A DNA stretch of 64,000 nt from Sphingomonadales bacterium (GCA_043760725.1 JAYUOS010000037.1:33551-97550), one strand, 5' to 3'; numbered from the stretch's first letter, positions 6,130 to 60,655 are shown. Numbers and translations: made by a program. The notes: a model not told the origin generated them from the letters alone.

Positions 6130-6640
6130 TCGTTACCGCACGACGGTTGATCGCCCAGGCTTGCTCGCTTGAACCCTCGGCAGCGGGGCGTTCTTTGCCG
6201 TGGCTGACGGTCTGAATGCGCGATGCGTCAACCCCCAATGACGCTAGGTAGTTTTTTGCAGCATTTGCGCGGCGCTCACCGAGTGCGAGGTTGTAGTCAC
6301 GCGTGCCGCGCTCGTCGCAATGGCCCTCAATCACGATCCGCTTGTTTGGATAGCGGGCAAGCCATTGCGCTTGTGACTGCAACGTCGCCTGATCGGCGGT
6401 ATCGACATTAAACCGGTCAGTGTCAAAAAAGATGCGGTCGCCGTCCATGCCGACAGCGGCAAGGAAATCTTCCTGACTGCCGGGCATGATTTGCCCTGCG
6501 CCGCCACTATTGTCCTGAGGCGTGCCATAATCGGTGTTGTCGGCTTGCGGCGGAATGTCGTTAATCTTTTTCTTACCGCAAGCGGCAAGTGCTGTGGTCG
6601 CCAGCAGCACCAAAGCGAGTGTTTTCATAGTCTTTTTCAT
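6116..6640 (-). CDS. pal: peptidoglycan-associated lipoprotein Pal (OmpA-like)
   Basis: Start set at MKKTMKTLALVLLATTALAACG (lipobox), preceded by GAAGGAG. It has the OmpA_C motifs EGHCDERGTRDYNLALGERRA and lies directly downstream of tolB. Confidence 0.85.
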   Translation of the reverse strand: MKKTMKTLALVLLATTALAACGKKKINDIPPQADNTDYGTPQDNSGGAGQIMPGSQEDFLAAVGMDGDRIFFDTDRFNVDTADQATLQSQAQWLARYPNKRIVIEGHCDERGTRDYNLALGERRANAAKNYLASLGVDASRIQTVSHGKERPAAEGSSEQAWAINRRAVTITVL

Positions 6641-6677
6641 CGTCTTCTCCTTCACTTCGCCCCGCGAAACATAACCC

Positions 6678-45500: not shown

Positions 45501-47981
45501 CCAGCACCAGCTTGACGCACAGCTACCAGAGGCGACCATGGTGTTTGAATAAGGCGCAGCAAAACCGTCTTTTACAACAAATCCAGGGGTTGCAGGGCCG
45601 GTGAGGGCACTTTGCGCGGTGTTCGTAGTCGTGATCGTATACGTAATCGGATTGGTATTGCCGAAATAGGTCCACGGACTTGAACCGCTCGGCAGCCCGC
45701 CAACCACGCCCGACTTGTTAATGTTTGCATCCCAGCATTTTGGCAACGCAGCCTCAACGGTCGCCCAATTTTTGTCCTGTGGCTTGGGGTTCGACCCGGC
45801 TCCCAGAGTGTAGTTACCCGATGGCGGCCAAGCGATGTTGCTGTTGAACGGATGGGTAACATCCATCAGCGCCAGATTTTCAAACAATGCCGGTTTGGTG
45901 GTGCAATATTTATCATTCAACGGCGGGCGTTTGATGACGATGCTAATCTTACAATCAATCGTTCCACCGCTGGGAAAGGCGATGTTGCTGCCCAGATTGA
46001 TCGTCGGTGATCCTTGCGCGGGTGATGATGTGTGGACAGCGGTGCCGTTGATAACGCCATTTGCACTTGGGCCGCCGCTCCACGATGCCTGACACTTCCA
46101 TGTCGAGGTAAATGGCAATGAAGTCGCATAATCGGGAATCGATATCCGCGCGACGTCGATTACCGTGCCGATGTTGCGCGCCGGACCAAGGTTAGTGAAT
46201 GATACACGATAGTCGAGCGGCACGCCAAATTCCACAACCGCCGGATTGTTTTTCAGAGTTTTTTTAACAAGGAATTCGCAGGCCGGTTGCGGTTCCATCT
46301 CAGTTATCGCTTTGGCTTGCTGCGTAAAGGTGGTGGTCTGCCCCGTTACTGTGATCGCGCCATAAGGCGACGCTTTATACGTCGCGCGCGCAATATTGAT
46401 GATCGGTTTTGGATTGGCATTCGGCACAGTTTCGCAGTCTGGCTCAGCATAGACGAACGTCGTATAAAATGTGATCTTCTCACCGGGCTGCATTTCGATT
46501 TTCTCGGTTGTGTCCCAAGCGTGATCGACCTCTCCGTAAAACGTGTAGCTGTGATCAGGGTCGGCTGAGATTCCAGGCGTAAAGTCGCTACAACCCGCAG
46601 AAATGGTGGTCTCCGAAGGTTCGCATACTGTATCAACATGGATGCGGGTAAAGGGCGGCGTGTTCACGCCTTCCTGCACCCAATCTTGAAGGTCATTCTT
46701 TGCAATGGTAATTTGCTGCGCGGGGATCGACGCATTTTCGATGACTATTTTATACGTCACCTTTGAGTTCCACGGCACAGGGTTGCTCGGATCGACCTGC
46801 TCTTTGGTCATTTTCAAATGGCCGGTCCCGCAATTGGGATCAACTTTTGTCTGACCGGTTTCTACTGCGGCATTGACCGCCGCTGTGTTGTTAGCAGGGT
46901 TCAGCTCTGTTTTTGCAGACGTCGCGTTGGCAAGGGTAAAGAAGGTTTCGTTACGAAGGCCATTAGCGTCTTTCACCTGGATGCAATTCAGTCCGCCAAG
47001 CTGTAATATTCTGACTTTGATGGTCAACGTCATGGTCGAACCAGACTGCAAATGGCCATTGCTGCCCGCTGGGTATTTCCAGTCAAAGAAATTGTGATAG
47101 CCCATTGTGCCGACCAGGGTTGGTGTGCCGCCGGTCAGGTTGATGTCGTTCGGATCAAGGCAATCATTAGGCGTCGAGCCAGATGCTGGCGTCACCGAAC
47201 AGTTCGCACTGACAAACTCTACGTTCAACGGAACGCTGTTGGGCAATAGTGAAAACCGGTCATGCAATACAAACCAGTTGCCGACATCAACATCGGCGGG
47301 GCCATTGTTTTTGACAGTGATAGTGTAGGTAATGTTTCCGTTACCAGTGGTCAGATTGACCGCGTTCGGTGATGCCATTTTGGTAACCGAAAGATCGGCA
47401 TTAATCGGCGTAGTTCCCAAAACCTCGGTGGTAACGTCGTCCTTTGCGTTATGCGTGGGCGAATTGCCCTCTGCTTTGTTGAGTTTCGTCCCAGACGAAG
47501 TGAATATGCCGGGCGCAAAACAGGTGACGGTCCGGCCAACGCCTAAAGTGATTTTGACAATTCCGTTGGTCGCAGTGCTGGCAAACGGAAATACACTGGC
47601 CCCTAAATCATCCCTGCAAAATATGGGGCCGGAGGGCGTGAATCCGAATGACGAAGGATTGCTTAGCTTTGTGTCAATGATGTCGACATCTTGCTGCGGC
47701 TGGCTCCAGGGATTGGTAACCGCAAATGTGTAATACACCGGTGTGTTCATCGGCACCGGGGTCGCCAACGTGCAATCCGCCGGTTTTGACAGCATCATCG
47801 GATTGCCAGCGCAGAAATTCTTTTTAAAGCTGAATTTCGGGCCAGCCGCTGTCGCCAGTGCTGTAATTCCGATAATCATAACAAGCGCAAGCACCGCCCA
47901 AAACCAACGCGGAATATTCCGTCCAGATTCTGGTTCTTTTGAACCACCAAAATTGGCGTCAGCTGCTGTATCGATGCTCAT
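42510..47981 (-). CDS. giant secreted/surface protein: N-terminal signal/anchor, DUF11-type Ig-like domains, seven tandem 4-Cys modules, Lys/Gly-rich tail
   Basis: The ORF has 1823 codons and a GGGGAG RBS. The N-terminus is RWFWAVLALVMIIGITALATAAG. The DUF11 hallmark is ADLSVTKMASPN...ITYTITVKNNGPADV. The Thr/Asn/Pro-rich composition is typical of adhesins. Confidence 0.85.
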   Translation of the reverse strand: MSIDTAADANFGGSKEPESGRNIPRWFWAVLALVMIIGITALATAAGPKFSFKKNFCAGNPMMLSKPADCTLATPVPMNTPVYYTFAVTNPWSQPQQDVDIIDTKLSNPSSFGFTPSGPIFCRDDLGASVFPFASTATNGIVKITLGVGRTVTCFAPGIFTSSGTKLNKAEGNSPTHNAKDDVTTEVLGTTPINADLSVTKMASPNAVNLTTGNGNITYTITVKNNGPADVDVGNWFVLHDRFSLLPNSVPLNVEFVSANCSVTPASGSTPNDCLDPNDINLTGGTPTLVGTMGYHNFFDWKYPAGSNGHLQSGSTMTLTIKVRILQLGGLNCIQVKDANGLRNETFFTLANATSAKTELNPANNTAAVNAAVETGQTKVDPNCGTGHLKMTKEQVDPSNPVPWNSKVTYKIVIENASIPAQQITIAKNDLQDWVQEGVNTPPFTRIHVDTVCEPSETTISAGCSDFTPGISADPDHSYTFYGEVDHAWDTTEKIEMQPGEKITFYTTFVYAEPDCETVPNANPKPIINIARATYKASPYGAITVTGQTTTFTQQAKAITEMEPQPACEFLVKKTLKNNPAVVEFGVPLDYRVSFTNLGPARNIGTVIDVARISIPDYATSLPFTSTWKCQASWSGGPSANGVINGTAVHTSSPAQGSPTINLGSNIAFPSGGTIDCKISIVIKRPPLNDKYCTTKPALFENLALMDVTHPFNSNIAWPPSGNYTLGAGSNPKPQDKNWATVEAALPKCWDANINKSGVVGGLPSGSSPWTYFGNTNPITYTITTTNTAQSALTGPATPGFVVKDGFAAPYSNTMVASGSCASSWCWTAPVPHNVKWQIGIKNLGVGASGIWNLTLPGSAIKQGQDVNNRACVEAQGAEAGPGWYNNSGINPKCTDYNVPVIPVTTISVRKQVIDQTGAGITALGQFKLEVSCTPYGIPTASPSTSLHTTNPNGYSNYFTVNTVPMSGTCKVAETAMPAIPAAMAQRCGGVGNVAVSSNAPITLGALSATGNQVTVTNTYRCTKGPILTVTKRISNPAGSVVLTNLNFSVTANCTPGGSATQPVNNGLAVGTITFPVQLNASCTVTENSPLPAFPASAKTFCGPGNKPEWNTPLIAPSNGKVPIGANGAQVSITNSWKCVPVTGQLEVIKSFTTLQTAVQWPATIWTINTNCTPSGASSTVTINTPASGNAVITGSGMVTAPIADNCTVTEPTPTIAFSNAIKNYCSLPANGGGIPAWDAPTYTVNGVTTSTPPSVTITNGVQTVTVNNAWHCLPNTGTLAVKKIFKTQIPPGPTYQWTSENWTVNTNCSPNSTPTALTLTTGTGYNWLTADGSVIAPLNAVCTVTEDTTNFPTVFPPFATNYCTGGTTPEWDAPTYTYNGQTSSTPPSVTITSAGQTVTVTNTWSCKSNNGQIDLIKIVQGPTAQLPNMTFTINATCTPAASVSTAAITTSYPHSGTNGGPIVAPVGANCTLSEVQPLPVDPAMTAFCPANTTATWQTWPPVSLTITAAPQTVRVINIWSCVPNNPNATDQLEVIKNVQGPAIPTQFPQTIFNIGVICNPVASTPGLPITTLASSNAAFGNSDMFTTPENANCVVNETVPAIPAAAVSHCQATAGASYTAIWEAPTYSSPSVNMGPGIQTVTVTNKWKCVLNHPWFLAAIKKVEGPAGAPPLPALPYVISRNCTGTMSSGALLTGSVTINTATTSGTINVGGFVPVGGHCMLSEVQPALPAAAQTYCDTATPGSIATWNAPTYSLPMPVAGDFPTNNKTVTVTNSWLCLSNQKVAPKKKKKSKFKFNIGIGIGGGGGGGGDKPKQPRDPQPR
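42645..45269 (-). repeat. seven tandem protein-level repeat modules (115-134 aa each) inside the giant gene
   Basis: The modules span residues ~905-1779. Each follows the pattern L.V.K ... NC(T/S)P ... C(T/K/V)V.E ... (F/Y/H/R)C ... VTV(T/N)N.W.C, so four Cys are conserved per module. The modules have diverged at the DNA level. Confidence 0.7.
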
Positions 47982-48667: not shown

Positions 48668-49915
48668 CTATTTCTTTACAGGTGCACTGAGCCGGAACAA
48701 CCCATTACCGAATACAGCATCATGGCCCTTTGCGCCCAAGTCTTGCGCGCGGGCGGCGACTTGCTCCTTCATCGCAGCTGGATTGCGTCCGCCGTTGCAG
48801 GCGGGCATCCTTAATAGCGCTCCCGACACAACAGCGGTGGCAAAGCTTGTTCCCGATACCGCACGGCGGCCTCCCGGCGCTGCAGCGTTCAAGCCAACGC
48901 CAACACCCGCAACATCAATGCGGTCGCCTTGCGAGGCATAAGCATAGCCGTTTAGCTTTTCATCGACTGCAGTCACCGCAAGGCTTGATGGATGCGAGGC
49001 GGGAAAGAGCACTTTGCCGCTCGGTCCGCCATTGCCCGCCGCCGCCGATACGCAGACGCCGTTCTTGCGGATAGTATCGAGCGTGATGCCGAGCAACTTG
49101 TCCTGCGGCCCTCCGAAAGAAAGGTTCAGAACATCGGGCCGCAACCGCGATGCCTCGTTCATCGCTTTCGCCAGAAACGATGTGCGCGACAGCACATCGT
49201 CGGTTCCGCTACCACCAAACGCTGCAAGGCTGGTCAGCCTTGCACCCTGTGCCGTTCCCGGATAATTGCCTGTGCCAACGAGCAACGCGGCAATCGCTGT
49301 TCCGTGAACCGCAGGGCTTTTGTCGGTGCCAAAAAATTGCTGTGTTACGTTGGCTCCGGCAAGGTTGTCATGGGCGGTATCAACAACAGCATCAATCATC
49401 ACGATACTGCCAGTTACGCTGGGCTGTTTTTCCGGGATGACGTGCAGTTCGAAACGTTTCGGGCGGCTTTTGCCGAGTAACTGAAACTGATAATTCGGCT
49501 GCGCAAAGGCAATGCCCTTTTGCCGCTCCAGCCGCGCGGTGGCGGCGGTGACCGTGTCACCATATGCCAGAGACGCGACTACCATCGTCACGTTAGATTC
49601 GTCGAGCCATGCGCTATCGATGACGCTAACATTAGCTTTACGGGCGATCGACGCTGCATTTGCATCCTGACCATTGATGACAAAAATGACTTCATCCGAG
49701 ACATATTCGTCGATGGCAGCATCGCGCATTTCCAGCGGAGGGACCTCGGGTGTTTTCGGCTTTTTCTTACCACCCAGCTTAATCGATATGCCAATACCTG
49801 AGCCACCGGTATGGGGGCGATTGGGGCGCGGTTGCTGACTCTGGCCAGGTATCACTTGCCCGATCGCCGCTGATGCGAGCGATGCCAAAGCTAAGCCAGA
49901 GATCAGCCTCTTCAT
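48668..49915 (-). CDS. S8 family (subtilisin-like) serine peptidase with N-terminal propeptide
   Basis: 415 aa with a signal peptide. The catalytic triad contexts are VMIDAVVDTAHDNL (Asp), HGTAIAALLVG (His) and SGTSFATAVVSG (Ser), with oxyanion NLSFGG. Confidence 0.85.
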   Translation of the reverse strand: MKRLISGLALASLASAAIGQVIPGQSQQPRPNRPHTGGSGIGISIKLGGKKKPKTPEVPPLEMRDAAIDEYVSDEVIFVINGQDANAASIARKANVSVIDSAWLDESNVTMVVASLAYGDTVTAATARLERQKGIAFAQPNYQFQLLGKSRPKRFELHVIPEKQPSVTGSIVMIDAVVDTAHDNLAGANVTQQFFGTDKSPAVHGTAIAALLVGTGNYPGTAQGARLTSLAAFGGSGTDDVLSRTSFLAKAMNEASRLRPDVLNLSFGGPQDKLLGITLDTIRKNGVCVSAAAGNGGPSGKVLFPASHPSSLAVTAVDEKLNGYAYASQGDRIDVAGVGVGLNAAAPGGRRAVSGTSFATAVVSGALLRMPACNGGRNPAAMKEQVAARAQDLGAKGHDAVFGNGLFRLSAPVKK

Positions 49916-50601
49916 ACTGCCTTGTCAGCCGCCGCGATTAACGGCGACGTTTTCAGCCTTTCGATTTGTCGCTCTAGCGCCTCATCCTTTAGGTCGCTTG
50001 AAAGCGTGAGTGCGCCATCGCTCGGCCCGCCGACAATCTCTAGTCCCTCGTTCGCAAGCAGTTTCTCAAATTCTGCCCATGATACATCGGATGCCAGCTG
50101 CAATATGATACTGGCTTTTTGCGCAGCTTCGCCGCCGGGGCCAGAGGCAAGCTGAAACTCGACCTCGCCAAGCCGCTTTTCCAGCGACGCGATCTTTGAC
50201 GACCGTTGCGTATTCTCGCCGTTAAGGTTGGCAATCAATCCGGCCTGCGCGATAGCCGCGATGGCCAGCGACAAAGCGACCGCCGGATGCCAGCTTCGCG
50301 GGTTGAGGAATGCCAACATGGCCCCTAAACTCGCGCTAGGAGCAGACATCCCAGTAGGTGCTCGAGCCTCCGACAGCTTTGCCGCAACGCGTCCAACCCG
50401 CATAGCATCCCCTTGTCCCAAATCACGACCTCCGGTTTTAACGCCTTGCGCTAATCGGCCAATTTCGGCCAGCTCTTCACGCAACTCTGGGGATGTTGCA
50501 AGCGCCGCATCAACCAAAGCGCAAGCATCGGCATCCAACGTGCCGTTGACATAGAACGGCAGCAACAACGACACATTTTGAAAATCCGGATCTTGGGCCA
50601 T
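49912..50601 (-). CDS. anti-sigma-factor-like single-pass membrane protein
   Basis: Start taken at MAQDPDF. The N-terminus LLLPFYVNGTLDADACALVDAALATSPELREELAEI has anti-sigma domain layout but lacks the HxxxCxxC zinc motif. It has one TM helix (WHPAVALSLAIAAIAQAGLIANL). The stop overlaps the S8 start (ATGA). Confidence 0.55.
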   Translation of the reverse strand: MAQDPDFQNVSLLLPFYVNGTLDADACALVDAALATSPELREELAEIGRLAQGVKTGGRDLGQGDAMRVGRVAAKLSEARAPTGMSAPSASLGAMLAFLNPRSWHPAVALSLAIAAIAQAGLIANLNGENTQRSSKIASLEKRLGEVEFQLASGPGGEAAQKASIILQLASDVSWAEFEKLLANEGLEIVGGPSDGALTLSSDLKDEALERQIERLKTSPLIAAADKAV

Positions 50602-50692
50602 TTTGCGAGTCCATATTATGTTTCTGACTAGCGGCCACACTTCCGCGATATTTGAAAGTCGTTTGGCGCTTAGCTAAAGTTCATTATCGCAT

Positions 50693-53600
50693 TCAACCAT
50701 TCGGCCGATGACTCAATGCAACCTCGGTCATCCAAGTCAAAGCCGACCGGCTGGGCATAAAGAAATAGCCACCGGCCATTACAGTCACGAAATTTTGCAT
50801 CCCTGTCAGCTTGATCGGGCCAACAGGGGTCGGGATATTGAAGCTGCGTTCTGCTGGACAGCCGGTCAACGGATCGGGCGTGTCAGTACCAAAAATCGGG
50901 TCTGGTTCATGCGACAGCCCGTGAAAGTTGGCCGAGTTACACCAGACCTGTTGGACAAATTCAAACTGTCGTTCAAGATCGGCACACAGGCTGACAAACA
51001 ACAGGCCTTTCTCTGTGCCGCCGCCTGTTGCAGGCCGCGTGTAGGTGCGACCGCGACGGAGCAAGCGGTGGCGGTTGCTGATAATCTGTTCAGCGGGATC
51101 GCCCGGTTGTTTGCTATCGCGCGGATTGGTCCGGCGCATATGCGAGCCAAAGGGACACGCAAGCCCTTGCGGATCATCCATCCCGTACGTGAAATCATTC
51201 TCGGTTTCCGCTGCGCGGCAATACGCTTCGTCGGGGTCGCCCGGCAGCGGCGAAGCTGTATTCACCGGATTGCCGATCAGCGGGCGGCCATTGGGCCAAC
51301 GCCCCATCAGCTTGGCCTTGATCCAATCCTTGTCGGGATATTGGCCGATGACTTTGTAAATGTCGCGGTAGACCATCTGGTCTTCGCTTTCGACATTACC
51401 CATGATCTCGTCGGCTTTTCGCCTGACGAATTCGTCAAAGCCTTCGACGTCTTGTTGCAATTCGCGCACCACAACAAAGCTACCGTTGCGTCCAAAATCG
51501 CGCGGGGCATCGCTGATGGTTTTGTCACCGAAATCGGGGAAGCGGCTTAAGCCAACATCTGAAGATAGCGGGAGAGTCCGGCCAAGGTCAGCCTCGGCCG
51601 GCAACATCGGGCTAATCGGAAAATGGCCCTGCCCGTTTTTATAGCCCAGAATGAACTCACCGGGTTCAACAAGATCGCGGGCCGGAACGCCGCGTGTTTG
51701 CCGCCCGGTGCCGCGGATCACCGGCTGCGCAATGCCGTCGCGATAGCCGAAATGTTCGAATTCCGGCTTTGCGGAATCGGCTGGCGCGCAGTCGAGTTGG
51801 TTCAATATGCTACCGCCATAATTCTCAATCAAAGCGCGGTGGACTTGCGTCGCAAAACTCAGATCAGCGGGGCTTTCGGCATAGACAAACAGCACAGCCT
51901 GTGCGGCATCATCGTCCCAACGCCAGTTGGTGGAATCCGCCGTGCCGACATCGCCCAAATTGCGGCCTCGATTTGCCATGCCCATGCGGAATGCCGGGGG
52001 GAAGCCCGACAGCAAAGTTTCGTCCGCTGTATTGGGAGCCTCGAACTTAGCCATTCCAGCGGCGGAACAGCCCAAAAACACTGCCCGTCGTGCGGCGTGT
52101 TGAGCGTCGGCTTTGCCGAATATTTGTTCATCCGCTGTGTCCGACAAATCCACTGGATCGGGGACTTCCTCATAGATTGTCGCATCGCCGACCAAGGGTC
52201 GGTCGCCAAAGGTCAGCGTCATCGAATGGGCAAGGGCATAGCCTTCAATCTCTCCGTCGCGCCCATATACCGGCACAATCACGCCGCCCCCCATAAGGCC
52301 ACCGGTCGATGGCGCGTTCTTGGGAGCGCTTGCAATATCGAGTTTTTGCGTCGCGCCCCGTATCCAGCTGAGCCACTCGCCAAGCGCAGGGGTTGGCGGT
52401 AATTTGAGCGTCAGGCAGGTCGAAAACTGCAACCGCTTTAGCCCAGAAAACACAAGCGCTTGGACCTCATCGCTTTCGATCAGGTTGTCGACCCGGGGCA
52501 TTGACCCGAAACAGCGCAGCCATTCCGCCGCCTCGCTATTGGTGCGCGCGCGGGCGACACCGCTATGAATAAGGGCGTTTCCCCTAATCTGGTCAGTCGT
52601 CAGCGTCGGAAAGCGGCTATACCAGAATGGCACAATCTGTTGCCGCGTGCGGACCCAGCGTTTGAAATTCTCACCCTGCCCCGCCCCTTCAAAGATCAGG
52701 TATTTGGTCTCGGGAAAGCCTTTCCAATTGCTCCACACCGATGTTTGCCCCCAGCGCGCACGGGTGATGAAGTCCTCCAGATAGCTTTCCCAACTGCCAT
52801 CAAAATTGGAATAGAATGCAGTTTTGTTCGTGCCCGGGACGCGCCACCAACGGGCATAATGGATCGTGCCCATATTGATCACAAAGCCGGGGCGATAGTT
52901 GAAGGTGATAATGATCCGTATCGCCCAAAGCGCAAAGGCATGAGCGAAAGCGCGCAAGAAACCCGGCTTCATCTCGCCGACCGCAAGGATATGGTTTTGC
53001 GCATAGCCCGGCGCATCCTCCAACTGCCCGATCTTTGCGATATGATCGAGCGGTGCTTGGCCGGAGTCGATCCAGTCTTCTTTCTCGGCGCGGCGGATTG
53101 CAATGAAAAACGCAGCGGTGGCAAGGGCCAGAACGATTGCCGTCGCCAAGATGGCGCGCAGGCCGGTTCCTACAAATTGCCAACCAAAGCCGGGACTGGG
53201 ATCATAGACCCCGAACAGCCAGCCGAAAAACGCGAACAAAGCAACGACCGGGATTGTGAAAACCAACCCCTCCCGCGACCGCAGAAACGCCATAAATGAT
53301 CCCATCTTTGTCACCCGCCGGAAATCGGCAAGATTCAGAGCGGCACTATCTGGCAACAAACGAAACGCGTCGAACCCTGCGCTCGCGGCTTCGCGCATCA
53401 ACGTCCGCTGGCCGGATGTTGCGGTCAATGCAAGAATACGGTCCTGATTGAGTATCCGCCGCACATAGTTCAGAGCCAGCATTGCGTGGCTACCGCTTGT
53501 CGCTTCGTTACCCAGATAATCGGCCACGACGCGTTCAACAAAAGTCGCAAAGCGCGCCTGCTTTTCAATGGTGGCCACCGGGAACTCGCCTGTCCCGACA

Positions 53601-55339
53601 TAGTTCAGACCGTTGGCGCCCCATGGCTTGCCGTGCAGCTTGACAACATGCTCGGTCAGGAAATTGACAAAATCGGCACTATCGGCAAGGCCACATTGCG
53701 CAAACAACGGGCGTAGCAGCGCCTCGCAATTCAACGCCAGCTTCTTGATAGCGGACGCTTGATCGCCATCGACGCTCAATTCCCACACAAGGTCGACGCG
53801 CTTTTCCGATTCTATCGTCGCTAGCGACGAAAAATGGACGATACCCGTCGCATCCAACGCCGCTCGCATCTCAGGCCCAGCCGGATTACCGAGCTGCGCA
53901 ATATCTAAATCGATCTGTGCTTTGGGTATTTCCGCATTGACCGGTGCAACCAACAAAAACATCGTTTGCTGCGATGTTGCCGTATCAAACGTCATCACCC
54001 AATTGCGTGGAAACGGGCCAATCGACTGCATTCGTCCGGGTTGGCCCTTGGCAGGTTTCAACCCCGACTGGCGCAGTAGCAAACTCAACACATCGGCGAT
54101 CTGTTCAATCGCCAGATGCTTGCCTAGGCACCAATGGATGCCAGCGCCAAAGATCAGGTCGGGCTCGATCCAGTTGCCGTGTTCGTCGCGGCGGTCGGGC
54201 AGGAATGCCTTAGGCTTTGGCATCGCGCGCACATCACGCATCGCCGACATTGTGGAGACCATCAAAGTTGATCCGGCGGGAATGGTCTTCTGCTGCCCCT
54301 TGCCCAGATCAATGATAGTGTCTTTTGCGCAATAGCGCCACTGGCCGGGGGCAAGCGCTGGATTAAGGCGGCCAGCCTCTAGCAATATCCGCTTAAAATC
54401 TTCGCGCCCTGCTGCGCCCTTTTGTGCTGCCGCCACCGCCATGTCCCACGCCGCTGGGTGACGGCGCAGTTCTTCAAACATCTTGCCCGCGCCTAGGGTA
54501 TTAGTCGGCACAAACCCAGCGGCTAGACCGATCAGAACGGCACGGATATCGGCATCAGAAACTGGTTCACCGCCCTCTGCTTTGCGCGCAGCTTGCAAAG
54601 TCACCAGCCGACCCACTAAGGTCGATTGATCGTCAACTGCGCCCTTTGCCTGCGCTTGGCGGACACGGGCAATCGCGTGATCGACGACAAAGCGCAATCG
54701 TGCCGCACCGTTTTGTGAAACAGCCCGCACGCGTTCATCACCATAAGGATCACCAAACAGCCGCGCCGATACCGCCAGCGTCCAGTCGGCAAATTGCGAG
54801 GGATCATCGACCGAGAGCCCGAAATAACGCAGGCAAATTTCAGCCGCGACCCGCTTTAACAGATCGTCGATCACATCAATCCGGCCCTTGGAATTATCGA
54901 GCAACGCCTGCGCATAGGACTGGCTCAGCTCGCGGATCAGCTCCATGTCCGCCTCGGGCCGCAAAGCATGACGCACCAAAGCGTGCATCCGTGCATGATC
55001 TGGCCCATCCAGCCCCAGAACAAAGGTCGCGCCGCCCGCCAGCTCCTCCATCTCTGGCCCGAATGGCACAGTGAATTCATCGGGCCGCAGCAACACTTGG
55101 CGCACATCGGCATCGCGGGTGATGTGGTAAAATCCGGCCAGTTTGAACACCGGGAAATACCGCCGCGACACCGCATAAATCGGTTTCAACAGCGCTTGTG
55201 CAAAGGCCGATTTCGCCGCTGCAAATTTGCTCGGGTTGGCGATATTGGCAAAATCAAATGGCGGAAGCGTCGGGTCCTTTTTATCACGCTGATTGGCGAG
55301 CGTCCGGCTTACGGTTTCAAAATACTTGGCATTTGGCAT
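50693..55339 (-). CDS. cytochrome P450 / unassigned domains with TM hairpin / DyP-type peroxidase fusion protein
   Basis: The ORF has 1548 codons. The P450 part has ExxR in LLEAGRLNP and the heme loop FGAGIHWCLGKHLA (Cys404). TM helices lie at about residues 691-747. The DyP part has EHFGYRDGIAQP, GEFILGY, NGSFVVVREL, CPFGSHMRRTNPRD (His1400), LLRRGRTY and LERQFEFVQQVW. Confidence 0.85.
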   Translation of the reverse strand: MPNAKYFETVSRTLANQRDKKDPTLPPFDFANIANPSKFAAAKSAFAQALLKPIYAVSRRYFPVFKLAGFYHITRDADVRQVLLRPDEFTVPFGPEMEELAGGATFVLGLDGPDHARMHALVRHALRPEADMELIRELSQSYAQALLDNSKGRIDVIDDLLKRVAAEICLRYFGLSVDDPSQFADWTLAVSARLFGDPYGDERVRAVSQNGAARLRFVVDHAIARVRQAQAKGAVDDQSTLVGRLVTLQAARKAEGGEPVSDADIRAVLIGLAAGFVPTNTLGAGKMFEELRRHPAAWDMAVAAAQKGAAGREDFKRILLEAGRLNPALAPGQWRYCAKDTIIDLGKGQQKTIPAGSTLMVSTMSAMRDVRAMPKPKAFLPDRRDEHGNWIEPDLIFGAGIHWCLGKHLAIEQIADVLSLLLRQSGLKPAKGQPGRMQSIGPFPRNWVMTFDTATSQQTMFLLVAPVNAEIPKAQIDLDIAQLGNPAGPEMRAALDATGIVHFSSLATIESEKRVDLVWELSVDGDQASAIKKLALNCEALLRPLFAQCGLADSADFVNFLTEHVVKLHGKPWGANGLNYVGTGEFPVATIEKQARFATFVERVVADYLGNEATSGSHAMLALNYVRRILNQDRILALTATSGQRTLMREAASAGFDAFRLLPDSAALNLADFRRVTKMGSFMAFLRSREGLVFTIPVVALFAFFGWLFGVYDPSPGFGWQFVGTGLRAILATAIVLALATAAFFIAIRRAEKEDWIDSGQAPLDHIAKIGQLEDAPGYAQNHILAVGEMKPGFLRAFAHAFALWAIRIIITFNYRPGFVINMGTIHYARWWRVPGTNKTAFYSNFDGSWESYLEDFITRARWGQTSVWSNWKGFPETKYLIFEGAGQGENFKRWVRTRQQIVPFWYSRFPTLTTDQIRGNALIHSGVARARTNSEAAEWLRCFGSMPRVDNLIESDEVQALVFSGLKRLQFSTCLTLKLPPTPALGEWLSWIRGATQKLDIASAPKNAPSTGGLMGGGVIVPVYGRDGEIEGYALAHSMTLTFGDRPLVGDATIYEEVPDPVDLSDTADEQIFGKADAQHAARRAVFLGCSAAGMAKFEAPNTADETLLSGFPPAFRMGMANRGRNLGDVGTADSTNWRWDDDAAQAVLFVYAESPADLSFATQVHRALIENYGGSILNQLDCAPADSAKPEFEHFGYRDGIAQPVIRGTGRQTRGVPARDLVEPGEFILGYKNGQGHFPISPMLPAEADLGRTLPLSSDVGLSRFPDFGDKTISDAPRDFGRNGSFVVVRELQQDVEGFDEFVRRKADEIMGNVESEDQMVYRDIYKVIGQYPDKDWIKAKLMGRWPNGRPLIGNPVNTASPLPGDPDEAYCRAAETENDFTYGMDDPQGLACPFGSHMRRTNPRDSKQPGDPAEQIISNRHRLLRRGRTYTRPATGGGTEKGLLFVSLCADLERQFEFVQQVWCNSANFHGLSHEPDPIFGTDTPDPLTGCPAERSFNIPTPVGPIKLTGMQNFVTVMAGGYFFMPSRSALTWMTEVALSHRPNG

Positions 55340-55360: not shown

Positions 55361-57040
55361 TCAGTCGTTTCGAGCCATCGCTTGGTTCATTCCGTCCGCC
55401 AAAAACCTGTTCCAATGACTATTCATAAATGGAACCCAGTCGATGTAGTGCAGCCCAAATCGGGGGATTGACGCTTTAAGTTCGGCAACAGCATCCTTCG
55501 CCGACGCCCCCTGCCCGCTACGCACCAGAGCATTGATCTTCATCACATGTGAAAACCAATATGCGCCTCTACGTGTCAGCGAGAGGTCAGCCTGCTCTAG
55601 CGCATCATCAAACGCTCCGATCATCACATACGACACGGCCAGTTCGCCGCGAAAATAGAAAAGTTCTGCATCATTGGGGCTAAGCTGGATCGCATTTTTC
55701 AGCGTCGGAATCGCATCCTCAGGCGCATCGCGTAGGTAATAGCTGCCGCCCAATTGCGCGTGCGCCATAGCCAGGCTGGGATTAAGTTCGATGGCACGTT
55801 TCAACAAAGCTTCTGCACGTAGCGGTTGGCGCAACCATTTTTCAGCAATGCCCGCCAGCATGTGGCCGCGCGCATCGTCATAATCTGCGATGATCGCCTT
55901 TTGCGCCATTTGCCGGATCACGCGGATTTCTTCATCCGACCCGCGCTGCGCCCAAAGGTCCCATAACTTGGCCCAAGTCATCTGGATGATCGCCTCAGGC
56001 GAGTTCGGTTCGCGTTCCAGCGCCTCGGCTATATAGGCTTTCGCCTTTTCTGAATCCTCAGCAGTAAACCGGTTCAAATGCCAGCGCCCGCGCCAGATCA
56101 GTTCGCGGACATTGAGGTCGCTTTGCGGTTTGCCCAAAGCCCGGGATTGCTCCGCTTGGTCGACCTTCGCCCCTAAAGCGGTTGTCAGTCCAGTCAGCAA
56201 TTCACCGAAAGCATCAGGCGCATCTTGCGCGCTAAGGGCCAACTTGTTCGACCACAATGTGTTGCCTGTTTCGCAATCAACCAGCGACGCGGACAGCATG
56301 TTTGCGCCAACCTGACTCCTAACTCTGCCTTCAAGCAAATACCGCGCGCCAAGTAATTCGCCGGCAATCTTGGGATTAGTTTCTCGCACGGCAAAGCTGG
56401 AACTGCGCGATATGATCGGCAGCCAGCGCAACCGCGACAAACGGTCAATTAAATCCTCGCTGATGCCCTCTGCAACAAAATCCTGATCAGGATCGCCAGT
56501 CAGGTTTTCAAACGGCAACACCGCCATTGCGGGAAGCGCAGTAAACGCTTTGGCAATTTCGGCGTTGGCTGCGGTTTGCACCCTTTGCGTAACAGACTCT
56601 GTGTCGGACGTAGCCTCGCTCTTAGCCCGCTGCTCGCGCAGCCAATCCTCAAAGCCATCCTCGCCCGGGATATCCATCCCTTCTAGAAACTCCGCAGCGC
56701 CCGCGACATTCGGCCCACGCGCGTCCACTTGGATAGAGCTAAGGTCGATCCAGATACGCGCGTGGTCAGCGTTTAGAAGCGGCTGTCCGTCATGTTTCAG
56801 CAAGCCACGCAGGCTGGAGAGTTCACTGCGTAGGCTGGACTGCGCCTGATCCTGCCCGCGCGATCCCCATAGCTGGCTTTGCAACCAATTGCGTGTTCGC
56901 TCCCCTCCGTTCGCACTTGCAAGCATTGCAATCAATGCCTGCCCCTTGCGGCTTGAAATATCTATGCGGCGGCCATCCGGCGCATGCAGCCGGAACGGCC
57001 CATGCAACTGCAATGTAAAAAATGCCCGCCCTTGCGACAT
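55361..57040 (-). CDS. winged-helix (OmpR/SARP-type) transcriptional regulator with TolB-N-like and TPR domains
   Basis: The ATG at 57040 follows AGGGGG. The N-terminus is FTLQLHGPFRLHAPDGRRIDISSRKGQALIAMLA...SLRSELSSLR. The middle is AVLPFENLTGDPDQDFVAEGISEDLI. The C-terminus contains TPR-like repeats. Confidence 0.75.
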   Translation of the reverse strand: MSQGRAFFTLQLHGPFRLHAPDGRRIDISSRKGQALIAMLASANGGERTRNWLQSQLWGSRGQDQAQSSLRSELSSLRGLLKHDGQPLLNADHARIWIDLSSIQVDARGPNVAGAAEFLEGMDIPGEDGFEDWLREQRAKSEATSDTESVTQRVQTAANAEIAKAFTALPAMAVLPFENLTGDPDQDFVAEGISEDLIDRLSRLRWLPIISRSSSFAVRETNPKIAGELLGARYLLEGRVRSQVGANMLSASLVDCETGNTLWSNKLALSAQDAPDAFGELLTGLTTALGAKVDQAEQSRALGKPQSDLNVRELIWRGRWHLNRFTAEDSEKAKAYIAEALEREPNSPEAIIQMTWAKLWDLWAQRGSDEEIRVIRQMAQKAIIADYDDARGHMLAGIAEKWLRQPLRAEALLKRAIELNPSLAMAHAQLGGSYYLRDAPEDAIPTLKNAIQLSPNDAELFYFRGELAVSYVMIGAFDDALEQADLSLTRRGAYWFSHVMKINALVRSGQGASAKDAVAELKASIPRFGLHYIDWVPFMNSHWNRFLADGMNQAMARND

Positions 57041-57057
57041 GCGACCCCCTGTCCAGT

Positions 57058-57072
57058 TTACGCATAACGTAA
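57058..57072. promoter_or_regulatory. palindrome TTACG-N5-CGTAA in divergent control region
   Basis: ttacgcataacgtaa lies 18-32 nt upstream of the regulator ATG (57040). Confidence 0.3.
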
Positions 57073-57094
57073 GTTTCGCAATTTTCACGCGTTT

Positions 57095-57112: not shown

Positions 57113-57176
57113 CCGCTTTGCCGCTCACTTGGCGCTCGCACCGTATCGCTCACTTATGAGGAAAAAAGGGACGCCG

Positions 57177-57983
57177 ATGCTGTACACCCGCTTTTACGAT
57201 CAGGTGCTGACCGAAATCGCCGCTGGCAAAGTAAGCGACGGCATCAACCTGCTGGTCGGCATGCTTGATACTGTCAATATCGGGCCGGGCTCGCTGGCTC
57301 AGGCAAAACGGGAGCTGCACGGACACAGCCTAGCCAGAATGCTGCTGGAAGATCCGTCGCTGGCCGATGCCGAGGCGAGACCCAATGCGATAATGGCTCG
57401 CATAGCAAGCATCGGTCGCACCACGAAAGGCGCCGATATCAGTTCCACCGGCCGCCGACTGTTTGAGGTTACCAGCGAGCTAACCGTTGCACGTGCGTTG
57501 CGGCAGCGGCGCCAAAGCTATGAACTGAAATTCGCCCGCGCCTCGCAGCTCGGCCAAAAAATATGTGTGTGCGTCAGCGGAGGGCACAAGGCCGCCGACC
57601 AGCTGAACAATGCCGATTTTTCAAAAGCGACCGTTATCGATACCGACGACCACAGGTGGACGGCGGCAAAGTCTAACCCGCGCTTTGATCTCATTCTTGC
57701 ACCCGATTTGTTCGACAGAAACAAGCCGTCTGCTCTTCCCCACATCCTGAAATCGATGGCGACCTGTTTGGGCAAAAGCGGCAGCATCATCATCGCCGCC
57801 CTTTCGCCAAATCATTTGGGTTCGGGCTGGCGCAGCGCCTGTCTGAACTGGGATCCACATTGCCATGACGAGGCGGCTTTAGCCTCCCTTGCAGCAGCCG
57901 CCGGGCTGACGGCGCGGACCTATCGGGATGAAACAGATTGCGTCGTTTGGGGTGAATTGGGGGCAAATACTCATGGAAACTAA
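57177..57983 (+). CDS. hypothetical protein, class I methyltransferase-like C-terminal half (degenerate motif I)
   Basis: The ATG at 57177 lies 6 nt after AAGGGA; the listed ORF starts at a TTG at 57129. FDLILAPDLF...LKSMATCLGKSGSIIIAA resembles post-motif-I regions of SAM methyltransferases, but the glycine-rich motif I is poor (ICVCVSGGH). Its end overlaps the sigma gene by 11 nt. Confidence 0.5.
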   Translation: MLYTRFYDQVLTEIAAGKVSDGINLLVGMLDTVNIGPGSLAQAKRELHGHSLARMLLEDPSLADAEARPNAIMARIASIGRTTKGADISSTGRRLFEVTSELTVARALRQRRQSYELKFARASQLGQKICVCVSGGHKAADQLNNADFSKATVIDTDDHRWTAAKSNPRFDLILAPDLFDRNKPSALPHILKSMATCLGKSGSIIIAALSPNHLGSGWRSACLNWDPHCHDEAALASLAAAAGLTARTYRDETDCVVWGELGANTHGN

Positions 57984-58527
57984 AGCAAAGCTAGCGGCAA
58001 TAGCGGGCGGCGACCGGACGGTTTTCGCCGCCTTGTTTAAAGAATATCTGCCGCGCTTTGTGCCCTATGCAACCGGGCTTTTGGCGGGCGATAAAGACGC
58101 CGCAGAAGACGTCGTCCACGACGCTTTTATGGCAATATGGCAGCAAGCCGGGCGCTTTAGCGGAACCGGCAGCGCCGAGGGATGGATGCGGCGGATTGTT
58201 CGCAACAAGGCAGTCGACTGGTGCCGCAAGCAGCGCGAAATACCTATGACAGTTGAGTTGCAGACCGAACATTCGGAGAAAGCCGGCGGCTCGAACCCGT
58301 TTGAAGCGGCAGTGCAATCAAATGCAGCACAGCAATTGCGCGGCGCGCTTTCGATATTGAGCGTAGAGCAGCGCGAAGCAGTGTGGCTGTGCTATTTTGA
58401 AGAGTGCTCGTTGAGCGAGATTGCCCAATTTGCGCAGTGCCCCGAGAATACTGTCAAAACTCGATTGTTTCACGCCCGCAAAATTCTGCGGAATTCGCAT
58501 ATTCTAAAAGCGTCCGCTGTCGCATAG
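57973..58527 (+). CDS. ECF-type RNA polymerase sigma-70 factor
   Basis: 184 aa from the ATG at 57973. Region 2 is DAAEDVVHDAFMAIWQQAGRF ... WMRRIVRNKAVDWCRK. Region 4 is LSEIAQFAQCPENTVKTRLFHARKIL. Confidence 0.85.
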   Translation: METKAKLAAIAGGDRTVFAALFKEYLPRFVPYATGLLAGDKDAAEDVVHDAFMAIWQQAGRFSGTGSAEGWMRRIVRNKAVDWCRKQREIPMTVELQTEHSEKAGGSNPFEAAVQSNAAQQLRGALSILSVEQREAVWLCYFEECSLSEIAQFAQCPENTVKTRLFHARKILRNSHILKASAVA

Positions 58528-58748
58528 GCAGGCCCCGGTTTTGACGCTCAAAAGCGTTCGGCGGGCCCACCTATTACTCTCACCTTGCGCGCGCCTTTTA
58601 CCAGTTGTGATATTGTTCGCATGACATTGATGATTTTAGCCCGGATATTGATGTCCGGAGCAAAATTTTCCGATCGTAATAATCTTTTCAGTCTAGGAGA
58701 TTGGCCTGTACCGCCTAAGTGTTTATATCCATTTGCTGGAGCAAAAAG

Positions 58749-60065
58749 ATGAAACTGGAAAATGATCCGCTAGCGGCATTCTGGATGCCATTCACTGCAA
58801 ACCGCGCGTTCAAGACGACGCCGCGTCAGCTCGTGTCGGCCAAGGACATGCATTACACCAGCGACGACGGCCGACAAATTCTGGATGGCACCGCCGGATT
58901 ATGGGCGGTAAACGCTGGCCATTGCCGTGCGCCGATTATCGCAGCGATCCAGAAGACTGCCGCTGAACTTGATTATGCTCCGCCGTTTCAGCTGGGCCAT
59001 CCACTGGCGTTCGAACTGGCCTCGCGCATTGCTGCAATTATGCCAGAGGGGCTGGACCGGATTTTCTTCACCAACTCGGGTTCGGAATCGGTCGATACCG
59101 CGCTGAAAATTGCCTTGGCTTATCAACGCGCCATCGGCCAAGGAACGCGTACCCGGCTGATCGGGCGCGAGCGCGGCTATAGCGGCGTCGGCTTTGGCGG
59201 GATTTCTGTCGGCGGTATCGTCAACAACCGTCGTCAGTTCGGGACGCTGCTGGCAGGCGTCGATCATCTGCCGCATACCCACAATATGGAGCATAATGCT
59301 TTCACAAAGGGGCGTCCTGAATGGGGTGGGCATCTGGCCGACAATCTGGAGGCGATCGTTGCGTTGCACGGGGCAGAGACTATTGCGGCGGTGATCGTCG
59401 AGCCGATGGCGGGTTCGACCGGCGTGCTGGTGCCGCCTATCGGCTATCTGGAAAAGCTGCGCGAGATCACGAAGAAACACGGCATCATTTTGATCTTTGA
59501 CGAGGTTATCACAGCCTTTGGCCGCGTTGGCGGAGCGACCGCATCGGGCACACTTGGCGTGACGCCCGACATCATTACGATGGCCAAAGGCCTGACCAAC
59601 GCCGCGGTCCCAATGGGCGCAGTCGCGGTCAGCCGCCATATCCATAACGGCGTGGTCGAAGGCGGGCCGGACGGGATCGAGCTGTTCCACGGCTACACCT
59701 ATTCGGGCCACCCGCTTGCCGCCGCCGCAGGATTGGCGACGCTTGATCTGTATAAGTCAGAGGGCATTTTCGAACACGCGACTTCGCTCCATAGTTACTG
59801 GCAAGAGGCAGTGCACAGCCTGAAGGGCAAGCGCCACGTCATCGATATCCGCAACATGGGCATCGTCGCCGCCATCGAACTTGCCGCGCACAAAGACGGC
59901 ATCGGCAAGCGCGGAATGGCGTTGTTCCACAAATGCTTCGACAACGGGCTGCTCGTGCGCGCCACTGGCGACATCATTGCGTTGTCCCCACCGCTGATAC
60001 TGGAGAAACCGCATATTGATGAGATTATCGGGCGGATTGGCGAGTTGGTGGAAACGGTGGAGTAA
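58749..60065 (+). CDS. class III (omega) aminotransferase, beta-alanine/pyruvate transaminase-like
   Basis: The ATG at 58749 follows GGAG. The motifs are FTNSGSESVDTALK and IFDEVITAFGRVG, and the PLP-lysine context is DIITMAKGLTN. Confidence 0.9.
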   Translation: MKLENDPLAAFWMPFTANRAFKTTPRQLVSAKDMHYTSDDGRQILDGTAGLWAVNAGHCRAPIIAAIQKTAAELDYAPPFQLGHPLAFELASRIAAIMPEGLDRIFFTNSGSESVDTALKIALAYQRAIGQGTRTRLIGRERGYSGVGFGGISVGGIVNNRRQFGTLLAGVDHLPHTHNMEHNAFTKGRPEWGGHLADNLEAIVALHGAETIAAVIVEPMAGSTGVLVPPIGYLEKLREITKKHGIILIFDEVITAFGRVGGATASGTLGVTPDIITMAKGLTNAAVPMGAVAVSRHIHNGVVEGGPDGIELFHGYTYSGHPLAAAAGLATLDLYKSEGIFEHATSLHSYWQEAVHSLKGKRHVIDIRNMGIVAAIELAAHKDGIGKRGMALFHKCFDNGLLVRATGDIIALSPPLILEKPHIDEIIGRIGELVETVE

Positions 60066-60088
60066 CATTGGAATGCCATTGTAAACGC

Positions 60089-60202
60089 TTAATTTTCGGT
60101 CGTGTGGCTTCGCTTGCTTCCTACACACATTCTGCCGTCCGCTCGCCGATCTGACTTTTGACACTTTTGACACGAAAACGGCTTTTTGGCGATTCTGTTC
60201 AT
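60089..60202 (-). CDS. possible 37-aa basic peptide downstream of SOS-box promoter (speculative)
   Basis: The ATG at 60202 lies 2-7 nt after AGGAAA. The peptide is MNRIAKKPFSCQKCQKSDRRADGRMCVGSKRSHTTEN and contains the 9-nt tandem repeat tgtcaaaag x2. It has no family, and it may instead be a non-coding transcript. Confidence 0.2.
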   Translation of the reverse strand: MNRIAKKPFSCQKCQKSDRRADGRMCVGSKRSHTTEN

Positions 60203-60242
60203 GTTTCCTATTCGGCTTTGGTTTAGCGATTCCACTTGCCCA

Positions 60243-60271
60243 ATAAGAACATAAATAGAACATAATGTCAA
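60243..60271 (-). promoter_or_regulatory. sigma-70-like promoter TTGACA-17-TCTTAT reading leftward
   Basis: The minus strand reads TTGACAttatgttctatttatgtTCTTAT. The -35 is perfect, the spacer is 17 nt and the -10 matches 4 of 6. It lies in an AT-rich orphan region. Confidence 0.4.
60247..60261 (-). promoter_or_regulatory. putative LexA (SOS) box GTTC-N7-GTTC overlapping the promoter spacer and -10
   Basis: The plus strand reads GAACataaataGAAC. It is part of an 11-bp tandem repeat AGAACATAAAT / AGAACATAATG. Its orientation relative to the downstream DNA is the same as for the box upstream of ruvA. Confidence 0.45.
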
Positions 60272-60655
60272 GAATTACTTCTCTTTCACCGCTCCGGTGA
60301 TGTCCGTTGGCGACAAGTTTGCTGCCGTTCGGCTGCTGCTGGAGGGCGCTCGATAGCTGCCTTACGTTCAGCGTACGTGGAATAGCTGCTTTCAGCAGTG
60401 TAGCTTGGTATCTCTCACAATTGCGCCTGAGTCGCTCGAGCTTATATTCAAGTATCGGACATTGTCGCTGGAAAAGGCAGGGGCCGGCCAATTTCTTGCT
60501 CATCTAAATCAAGCGAATCCGTGCGAAAAGGAGAAACTCTGTGCCATTTGATGATGTCATAGCATGGGCGGTTTCAAATTTGAAAACGTATCGTTAACTT
60601 TTGCGCAGCTATGATCTGTGGTATCCTTCAGCCCGTTCTGAAAGTGAGGCCTGCC

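Follow-up and report, generated by a model that had tools for sequence, protein, structure and literature searches.

What is a single polypeptide in which a cytochrome P450 is joined to a dye-decolorizing peroxidase (DyP), and what might such a protein do? The question is raised by a 64,000-nucleotide stretch of DNA from a Sphingomonadales bacterium (GCA_043760725.1 JAYUOS010000037.1:33551-97550; hereafter the window, with positions counted from its first letter), in which positions 50693..55339 on the minus strand hold one open reading frame (ORF) of 1548 codons without interruption. The gene is a member of DyP subclass V4 by its architecture, a single chain that runs from an N-terminal P450 through transmembrane (TM) regions to a C-terminal DyP. 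Subclass V4 was delineated in 2022, when a study entitled "Unexpected diversity of dye-decolorizing peroxidases" (Biochem Biophys Rep 2022; PMC9719856) divided the DyPs into classes P, I and V, named V4 as unexplored, left its sidedness unclear since the number of TM regions varies, and considered for it either H2O2 scavenging or a product made in two steps, by analogy with Ppo enzymes. Beyond that study, the searchable literature contained no paper on a P450-DyP fusion and no biochemical characterisation of one. An earlier note on this locus, which had presented the fusion as without characterised precedent, is thus overtaken as regards the architecture and the Ppo analogy, both of which were already on record, but holds as regards the lack of a characterised member in the literature searched. 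The window protein shares with V4 the P450-TM-DyP order, the conserved distal Asp and Arg, the proximal His and a bacterial origin, whereas the middle of V4 proteins was described only as 'some transmembrane regions'. New here, and not described there, are a folded and conserved middle module of ~500 aa, variants in which the P450 is split from the module-DyP unit, and a signalling partner with tetratricopeptide repeats (TPRs) encoded upstream. This genomic context, namely the signalling partner and the split variants, is the most informative evidence on function.

The fusion protein and its domains

The 1548-aa protein was recovered in identical form, and with the same neighbours, in an independent assembly of SRR23617284. 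From a search space of 5.8 billion proteins, at least 120 homologue clusters with 41-89% identity to the query were obtained, nearly all of them full length (most with 97-100% coverage; listed lengths of ~1470-1600 aa) and mostly from Alphaproteobacteria, including the complete genomes of Rhodopseudomonas (5.99 Mb) and Qipengyuania (2.89 Mb). In a set of species-representative genomes, 566 loci were confirmed, with Rhodopseudomonas palustris, Bradyrhizobium, Mesorhizobium, Novosphingobium and Qipengyuania among the carriers. The closest genome is a Sphingorhabdus metagenome-assembled genome (MAG; locus L008), whose fusion protein is 89% identical. Public annotation labels these proteins "cytochrome P450" (NCBI) and "Dyp-type peroxidase family" or "cytochrome P450/deferrochelatase/peroxidase EfeB" (JGI). 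Two checks suggested in the earlier note, one for an assembly-derived frame fusion and the other for the taxonomic spread of the architecture, are answered by these results: the ORF is genuine, and the architecture is widespread.

The P450 domain comprises residues 1-455 (53975..55339, minus strand). Pfam p450 (PF00067) scores 35.5 bits on the whole protein and 40.4 bits on the isolated domain, with a gathering score of 22.8; the match spans residues 259-433 only, but the fold is complete, because NCBIfam TIGR04538 aligns over residues 69-423 and the solved P450 EryK/CYP113A1 over residues 59-411 (E = 6e-16). These bacterial class I P450s, EryK and the cyclodipeptide-synthase-associated TIGR04538, are the best sequence matches, although the window P450 reaches only 48.9 bits with the latter, far below its cutoff of 500; they share the FGxGxHxCxG loop, the ExxR motif and the meander. 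Unlike them, the P450 of this family is fused to or paired with a module-DyP unit.

Conservation of the heme-ligand and catalytic motifs was assessed in 115-193 homologues (an alignment of 115 sequences and a set of 193 P450 domains), in which these motifs were invariant or nearly so in both heme domains. The Cys loop of the P450, F397-G-A-G-I-H-W-C404-L-G406, is of the ordinary bacterial type, and its Cys404 (codon 54128..54130, minus strand), the predicted heme-thiolate ligand, is present in 192 of the 193 domains, the remaining row being a gap. In the K-helix ExxR motif, E321 is kept in 190 and R324 in 191 domains; the meander P..F..dR is conserved as well. Two regions predicted to lie near the active site, PFGPEM and LFGDP, are also strongly conserved in the 115-sequence alignment, which suggests one conserved substrate.

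The I helix departs from this ordinary picture. In the alignment with EryK, AGFVPT of the segment G271-T281 (GLAAGFVPTNT; 54497..54529, minus strand) falls on AGHITT, with Val277 at the acid position and Pro278 at that of the conserved Thr. Where bacterial class I P450s have A-G-x-[DE]-T-[TS], this family has G-F-[IV]-P-T-N: the acid-alcohol pair, (A/G)Gx(D/E)T(T/S), is lacking in A274-G-F-V277-P278-T279, which carries Val/Ile-Pro in place of Asp/Glu-Thr. Pro278 is found in 185, Thr279 in 187 and Asn280 in 143 of the 193 domains. The pair is typical of O2-activating monooxygenase P450s and is not a requirement for membership of the P450 family; its loss is characteristic of P450s without canonical O2 activation, such as peroxygenases and hydroperoxide-converting P450s. 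A Pro at or beside this position is reportedly found in the CYP152 peroxygenases (as Arg-Pro) and in CYP134A1. Our literature search for a precedent of the I-helix Pro returned only PMC9719856 as relevant. The non-canonical I helix is compatible with a relay of hydroperoxide between the hemes but is no demonstration of one.

The DyP domain comprises residues 955-1548 and, with the stop codon, positions 50693..52477 (minus strand), and it belongs to class V. Dyp_perox_C (PF20628) scores 31.1 bits on the whole protein and up to ~35 on the isolated domain (gathering score 20), and TIGR01413, whose cutoff of 100.5 bits is not reached, matches residues 1143-1533 with 86.7 bits. Among solved DyPs, that of Deinococcus radiodurans (DrDyP; 8RE3) is the closest to the C-terminal 595 residues (E = 7e-43), followed by other class V (former C/D-type) enzymes. 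Foldseek comparison of an AlphaFold2 model gave, at a probability of 1.00, TM-scores of 0.70-0.71 to DrDyP (normalised to DrDyP) and 0.61-0.68 to other class V DyPs, and the model has the DyP fold of two ferredoxin-like domains, which is common to DrDyP (8RE2/8RE3), DyP2 (4G2C), AnaPX (5C2I) and the fungal DyPs (0.61-0.71 overall). DrDyP and the other class V enzymes are soluble, stand-alone proteins of ~440-490 aa, whereas the window DyP makes up the last third of a protein anchored in the membrane; the module always lies in front of it, and an insertion is present at ~1000-1100.

The motifs that align with those of DrDyP are GxxDG, the proximal-His motif, the RRG distal-Arg motif and the RQFE region. 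GxxDG, here G1198-Y-R-D1201-G1202 (51734..51748, minus strand), contains the distal catalytic Asp and lies in EHFG.rDGisQP, which is conserved in the 115 sequences; its Asp and second Gly (D747 and G748 of alignment A3) are invariant. So is His1400 (codon 51140..51142, minus strand), the predicted proximal heme ligand in CPFGSHMRRTNPRD. Little or no variation is seen in the motifs CPFxxHxRRxNPRD and LLRRGR or in the RQFE region, R1428 and R1429 of LLRRGR both being invariant; the distal Arg would be one of these two. By motif conservation, the catalytic set of the DyP is predicted to be intact. The two complete heme domains that the earlier note had read in one ORF, together with their borders, are borne out by PF00067, PF20628 and the EryK and DrDyP alignments, its proposed search with profile hidden Markov models having placed both Pfam matches above their gathering scores, and the motifs and codons that it had quoted (Cys404, His1400, E321/R324 and G1198-G1202 with Asp1201) lie where it put them.

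Two well-conserved segments of the DyP were modelled with a predicted local distance difference test score (pLDDT) of only 30-45, one directly after GxxDG (protein residues ~1204-1233; 750-779 in the model) and the other after the proximal His (protein residues ~1405-1428; 951-974 in the model); these may be loops of the heme pocket that take on a defined structure only with heme or substrate bound. An extra, stand-alone DyP paralogue is encoded divergently, just upstream of the TPR partner gene, in Sphingomonas sp. GB1N7 (L036, 5360-7054, minus strand; 564 aa) and RT2P30 (L040, 5370-6776, minus strand; 468 aa).

Between the two heme domains lie ~500 residues that the earlier note had treated as a linker with a hairpin. 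They constitute instead a folded and conserved module, modelled by AlphaFold2 with a mean pLDDT of 84.9 and a predicted TM-score (pTM) of 0.83. Its N-terminal half (residues 455-690; 53270..53977, minus strand) is modelled as an α+β domain followed by a helical region, with pLDDT mostly >90; then come the two long helices of the hairpin (residues ~690-751; 53087..53272, minus strand) with a short, Lys/Arg-poor loop, and finally a C-terminal half (residues 755-955; 52475..53077, minus strand) with a second α+β domain of β-α-β-β order. A model of module plus DyP (1,094 residues; pTM 0.77) suggests that the two may form a single assembly. Residues 455-960 have no Pfam, NCBIfam or PDB sequence match. 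By Foldseek, the module falls in the α+β, ferredoxin-like class; its best match in the PDB was TsrL (7CWW; E = 4.6e-4, TM < 0.2), followed by small dimeric α+β-barrel (Dabb-type) proteins, none of them an informative homologue, and a literature search on TsrL found nothing. A duplicated or degenerate DyP or P450 domain was rejected as its origin: local hhalign comparisons of the module halves with each other, with the DyP halves and with the P450 all remained below 1% probability, which leaves no detectable relationship at the level of sequence profiles.

In strength of conservation, the module at least equals the P450, and it contains the stretch that is best conserved of all in the 115-sequence alignment, located between the heme domains at ~815-930 (RPGF..NMGTIHYARWW...FYSNFDGSWESYLEDF...WSNW.GFP). 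Across 241-257 diverse sequences, ~55 of them P450-less, about 45 module positions are ≥93% conserved. Many of the near-invariant positions are polar or aromatic: H502, S505, E520 and D524 in the N-terminal half, and E774, N782, H783, K791, R796, H827, W831, N845, S849, W850, Y853, E855, D856, W869, K893, R897, W906, R919, N921 and W940 in the C-terminal half. Such a pattern is the signature expected of a functional site and not of a spacer. An exhaustive search of 1.84 billion representatives found the module in 1,675 representative clusters (403 at E ≤ 1e-30), with or without a fused P450. Three architectures occur: an N-terminal P450 is present in proteins of ~1430-1550 aa, the module begins at residue 3-40 in those of ~940-1100 aa, and a third, longer type again includes a P450. 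A DyP-like C-terminus was present in every module protein checked for domains.

The two-helix hairpin described in the earlier note stands, with Kyte-Doolittle hydrophobic segments at residues 690-713 and 721-751 and corresponding helices in the model (H235-258 and H264-298, model numbering). When non-overlapping 19-residue hydropathy windows were chosen greedily, exactly two were found in the hairpin region of 181 of 255 family members. A frequent "third" window at ~785-808 is borderline (1.6-1.9) and falls on a helix of the module's C-terminal half, a part whose fold is modelled with confidence; this is probably the explanation for the varying numbers of TM regions reported in 2022. Mean Lys/Arg counts are 2.2 and 3.0 in the flanks and 1.3 in the loop (3/1/3 in the window protein), and the fusion protein has no signal peptide. 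Since most members have two windows, the flanks are richer in Lys/Arg and a signal peptide is absent, the hairpin most likely runs in-out-in, with both hemes and the module in the cytoplasm, which agrees with the sidedness that the earlier note had assigned to the heme domains. Roughly 20 family members have 4-12 hydrophobic windows in the hairpin region, and longer variants (P0189, P0220, P0252, P0135 and others; 1,600-1,985 aa) have several hundred extra residues between P450 and module; in some lineages, a polytopic membrane insertion may take the place of the simple hairpin.

Split forms and the upstream partner

All four P450-less module-DyP genes with retrieved neighbourhoods have a separate P450 gene, or in L006 a probable P450-like gene, next to them. 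In L088, a 465-aa P450 ends 10 nt ahead of the module-DyP start; in L089, a 398-aa P450 overlaps the module-DyP gene by 4 nt; and in L090, a 434-aa P450 is convergent to it. The 476-aa upstream protein of L006 has no Pfam match but is colinear with the family P450 profile, including a degenerate Cys loop (APRRCFG), and has faint matches to P450s in the PDB, making it probably a highly divergent P450-like partner. Further split examples are L068 and L080. Because a separate P450 adjoins the P450-less genes, the P450 and the module-DyP unit behave as obligate partners, and the window gene represents, in fused form, a two-protein system of wider occurrence. The split-type locus L090 (11486-17174) combines P450 and module-DyP with a cyclase-TPR protein, a Crp regulator, a gene for an animal-type heme peroxidase (An_peroxidase) and an FAD amine-oxidase-like gene, the last of which is a possible source of H2O2.

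The second recurrent element is the TPR protein encoded at 55361..57088 (minus strand), whose stop codon lies 21 nt upstream of the fusion ATG. Hidden Markov models were built from the family and from the proteins neighbouring it in the window and used to scan the ORFs of the retrieved loci in all six frames. Of 82 non-redundant loci, 68 have a partner homologue directly upstream and in the same orientation, the median distance being 37.5 nt; most of the 14 exceptions reflect missing upstream sequence or ORF-calling artefacts. The partner has no hydrophobic segment. Pfam places TPRs at its C-terminus, and a profile of 20 sequences of its non-TPR part, searched against the PDB, weakly matches SARP-type winged-helix domains at positions 5-84 (EmbR, E = 5e-3; AfsR, E = 7e-3) and an LpoB/FlgO/TolB_N-like fold at positions 163-289 (5T11, E = 2.7e-4); NCBIfam adds a weak match to the CadC sensor region.

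In Mesorhizobium, Nitratireductor and Halioglobus, the LpoB-like and TPR body of the partner is kept and the N-terminus is a class III nucleotidyl cyclase domain (PF00211, Guanylate_cyc; 26.7 bits in Mesorhizobium and 32.1 in Nitratireductor against a gathering score of 21.9, with Halioglobus, at 20.8, below that threshold). Cyclase-type loci have a Crp-family regulator (cNMP_binding and HTH_Crp_2) immediately downstream of the enzyme gene in nine of ten cases, the exception being Halioglobus L083. The split forms take part in the same arrangement: cyclase/AAA_16/TPR proteins are encoded in three of the four retrieved (L006, L088 and L090), two of which (L006 and L090) also have Crp. A conserved sensor body on which the output can be exchanged marks the partner as a signal-transduction protein, and as one that is dedicated to the P450-DyP enzyme. 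General alphaproteobacterial cyclase/TPR proteins and CadC/SARP-like winged helix-turn-helix (wHTH)-TPR proteins have a comparable layout, in which an LpoB/TolB_N-like domain and TPRs come after the output domain; unlike them, the partner forms an orthologous group of its own that goes with the P450-DyP gene.

Possible functions of the enzyme and its partner

As a possible, tentatively preferred reading, we propose that the enzyme performs a coupled oxidation of a membrane-associated substrate under the control of its partner. The hairpin would anchor the ~1,550-aa protein in the inner membrane and hold the module and the two heme domains close against it on the cytoplasmic side. There, the hemes would be coupled in the peroxide-linked oxidation of a single conserved substrate of lipophilic nature, such as an unsaturated or peroxidised lipid, and would probably need no dedicated redox partner. 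The fusion gene would be co-transcribed with that of the cytoplasmic TPR protein, which would sense the substrate, the product or the enzyme itself and thereby control expression, its output being either direct DNA binding or the synthesis of a cyclic nucleotide read by the neighbouring Crp regulator. The coupled chemistry is suggested by the near-constant Pro278, by the finding of no ferredoxin or reductase gene among the recurrent neighbours of the fusion loci, by the conserved regions near the P450 active site and by the membrane anchoring; we likewise infer the cytoplasm-facing membrane location, the peroxide-linked chemistry independent of a redox partner, the lipophilic nature of the substrate and the sensing by the partner.

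The fungal Ppo/linoleate diol synthases, in which a heme dioxygenase/peroxidase is fused to a P450, and the coral allene oxide synthase-lipoxygenase (AOS-LOX) resemble the window protein in having two oxygen- or peroxide-handling metal centres in one polypeptide. Their P450-type domain acts, without a redox partner, on a hydroperoxide supplied by the other domain, and the window P450 likewise does without the canonical acid-alcohol pair. The peroxidase fold in those proteins is, however, animal-peroxidase/cyclooxygenase-like or catalase-like, whereas that of the window protein, in which An_peroxidase gave no match, is the unrelated DyP fold; the order of the domains is reversed, and neither a membrane hairpin nor an extra module is present in Ppo or AOS-LOX. 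By analogy, the resemblance points to a possible working principle only, and the window protein does not belong to those families.

Several observations weigh against a coupled, partner-controlled oxidation. To our knowledge, no substrate, product or activity is known for any family member. Bacterial P450s are often served by unlinked redox partners, which makes the absence of a neighbouring one weak evidence, and the split-type P450 partners in L068 and L089 have a canonical Asp-Thr I helix (GS[IV]DTT), so that the wider family as a whole cannot share a peroxide-driven chemistry. Hydropathy and charge are the sole basis of the topology; E-values of ~5e-3 make the reading of the partner N-terminus as SARP-like a weak one; and the TPR partner could be an ordinary substrate-responsive regulator. 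Furthermore, DrDyP is inactive at neutral pH (PMC10820274), which makes the physiological chemistry of DyPs itself uncertain.

A more far-reaching proposal, which we regard as rather doubtful, is that the P450-module-DyP protein and the TPR partner together form a membrane-proximal signalling system not recognised before. The enzyme would make an oxidised lipid signal (an oxylipin-type messenger) or sense peroxide or redox state, the partner would convert this into transcription or into cyclic AMP or cyclic GMP for Crp, and the module would provide a third functional site, for binding of a substrate or cofactor or for docking of the partner. Natural fusions of two different heme enzymes are rare, and those studied, Ppo and AOS-LOX, revealed substrate channelling and new signalling lipids. 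The present family is large, occurs in model and cultivable bacteria and has no known function, and its context yields a testable system; its study could reveal a new bacterial oxidative or signalling pathway and could show what a class V DyP does in the cell.

It is unlikely that the protein serves in peroxide detoxification, with both hemes scavenging H2O2 or organic and lipid hydroperoxides at the membrane surface without any specific product, and with induction through the TPR regulator and, in Sphingomonadales, through a pair of extracytoplasmic function (ECF) sigma factor and zinc-finger anti-sigma factor. Zinc-finger anti-sigma factors are often redox-responsive, and genes for an ECF sigma factor and a zf-HC2 anti-sigma factor accompany the unit in 15-18 loci. 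The predicted intactness of the DyP catalytic set and the absence of redox-partner genes among the recurrent neighbours also fit scavenging, which was among the roles proposed in PMC9719856. Yet the ECF module is confined to one lineage, catalases and peroxiredoxins already do this job cheaply, and detoxification would leave unexplained the obligate pairing with a P450, fused or split, the large conserved module with its invariant polar residues, and the cyclase/Crp variant of the output.

Nor do we consider it probable that the fusion protein is mainly a membrane-anchored, heme-based sensor of peroxide, O2, nitric oxide or redox state, which would pass its state by protein contact to the TPR partner and thence to DNA binding or to cyclic AMP or cyclic GMP. 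Such a complex would account for the tight linkage of the two genes in nearly every locus, and for a partner that keeps its protein-interaction domains (LpoB/TolB_N-like and TPR) and swaps its output between wHTH and cyclase, with Crp accompanying the cyclase type; having no TM segment, the partner would share the cytoplasm with the heme domains. The full conservation of the distal Asp and Arg, of ExxR and of the regions near the P450 active site nevertheless argues for turnover over mere ligand sensing, two different heme enzymes plus a third module would make an extravagant sensor, and the physical contact between partner and enzyme is purely hypothetical.

Very improbable is a role in tailoring a secreted peptide, protein or natural product, in which P450 and DyP would act on aromatic residues, by cross-linking or oxidation, either in a peptide or in the giant surface protein encoded nearby, with an S8 subtilase as maturation protease. 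An S8 protease, weakly similar to the PatA/PatG-type and QhpE-type maturation proteases, is encoded in 27 loci, the best NCBIfam match of the P450 is the cyclodipeptide-synthase-associated TIGR04538, albeit far below cutoff, and a DUF5979 surface protein of 1823 aa is encoded downstream in the window, with a counterpart in L008. However, the protease and the giant protein are lineage-specific whereas the enzyme and its TPR partner are widespread, the protease and the giant protein would be exported from the cytoplasm, in which the heme domains are predicted to lie, and the loci hold no recurrent gene for a precursor peptide, cyclodipeptide synthase, nonribosomal peptide synthetase or polyketide synthase. 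An artefact of assembly or annotation, in which a frame error would have fused two separate genes, can be dismissed: the fusion gene is broken into two ORFs in the MAG loci L016 and L033 and true split versions exist in other lineages, but the identical protein in the independent assembly and the at least 120 orthologue clusters, complete genomes among them, rule it out, and the junction regions are conserved and modelled as folded.

Lineage-specific surroundings

In Sphingomonadales, the core pair of enzyme and partner is flanked by four further genes. On the minus strand, positions 49912..50640 encode the zf-HC2 anti-sigma-like protein, with one TM helix (residues 118-139), a PF13490 match of 18.8 bits, below the gathering score, and a weak match to NF052375 (18 loci); the gene for the secreted S8 subtilase (48668..49915, minus strand), which has PF00082, a fervidolysin pro-domain and a signal-peptide-like N-terminus, overlaps it at its start by 4 nt. 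The divergent ECF sigma factor gene (57928..58527, plus strand; 15 loci) is recognised by Sigma70_r2, Sigma70_r4_2 and Sigma70_ECF and by TIGR02937 (91.6 bits against a cutoff of 42.9). Upstream of it and overlapping it lies a gene for a 284-aa, weakly methyltransferase-like protein (57129..57983, plus strand; Methyltransf_23, 20.1 bits, below the gathering score), with homologues in the same position in ~14 Sphingomonadales loci. In Rhodopseudomonas and Bradyrhizobium, the only flanking addition is a divergent S8 gene. An anti-phage defence system was also considered and rejected, PADLOC giving no match save generic similarity to the S8 protease, and scans of the cluster for promoters and terminators yielded nothing above the shuffled background.

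Some surroundings are more idiosyncratic. The 1823-aa protein (42510-47981, minus strand), encoded ~690 nt downstream of the S8 gene, has an N-terminal anchor- or signal-like segment and three DUF5979 repeats and looks like a surface or adhesin-type protein; a 1947-aa homologue occupies the same position in the Sphingorhabdus MAG and in no other locus. In Vineibacter terrae (L004), genes for a caspase-like Peptidase_C14 protein (5954-6823, minus strand) and an eCIS_core-domain protein (4811-5392, minus strand) lie near the core pair in place of the S8 protease. In the window, a class III aminotransferase gene (58719-60065, plus strand) and a gene for a T2SSE-type secretion or pilus ATPase (61024-62010, minus strand) are ordinary neighbours outside the cluster, and a 248-aa ORF without Pfam match that overlaps the aminotransferase gene (59757-60503, minus strand) is probably a shadow ORF. 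Finally, the Novosphingobium MAG samp_4454_semibin_259 carries two full paralogous clusters on contigs L012 and L017, each with the ECF sigma factor, the 284-aa protein, the TPR partner, the P450-module-DyP fusion, the anti-sigma-like gene and the S8 gene.

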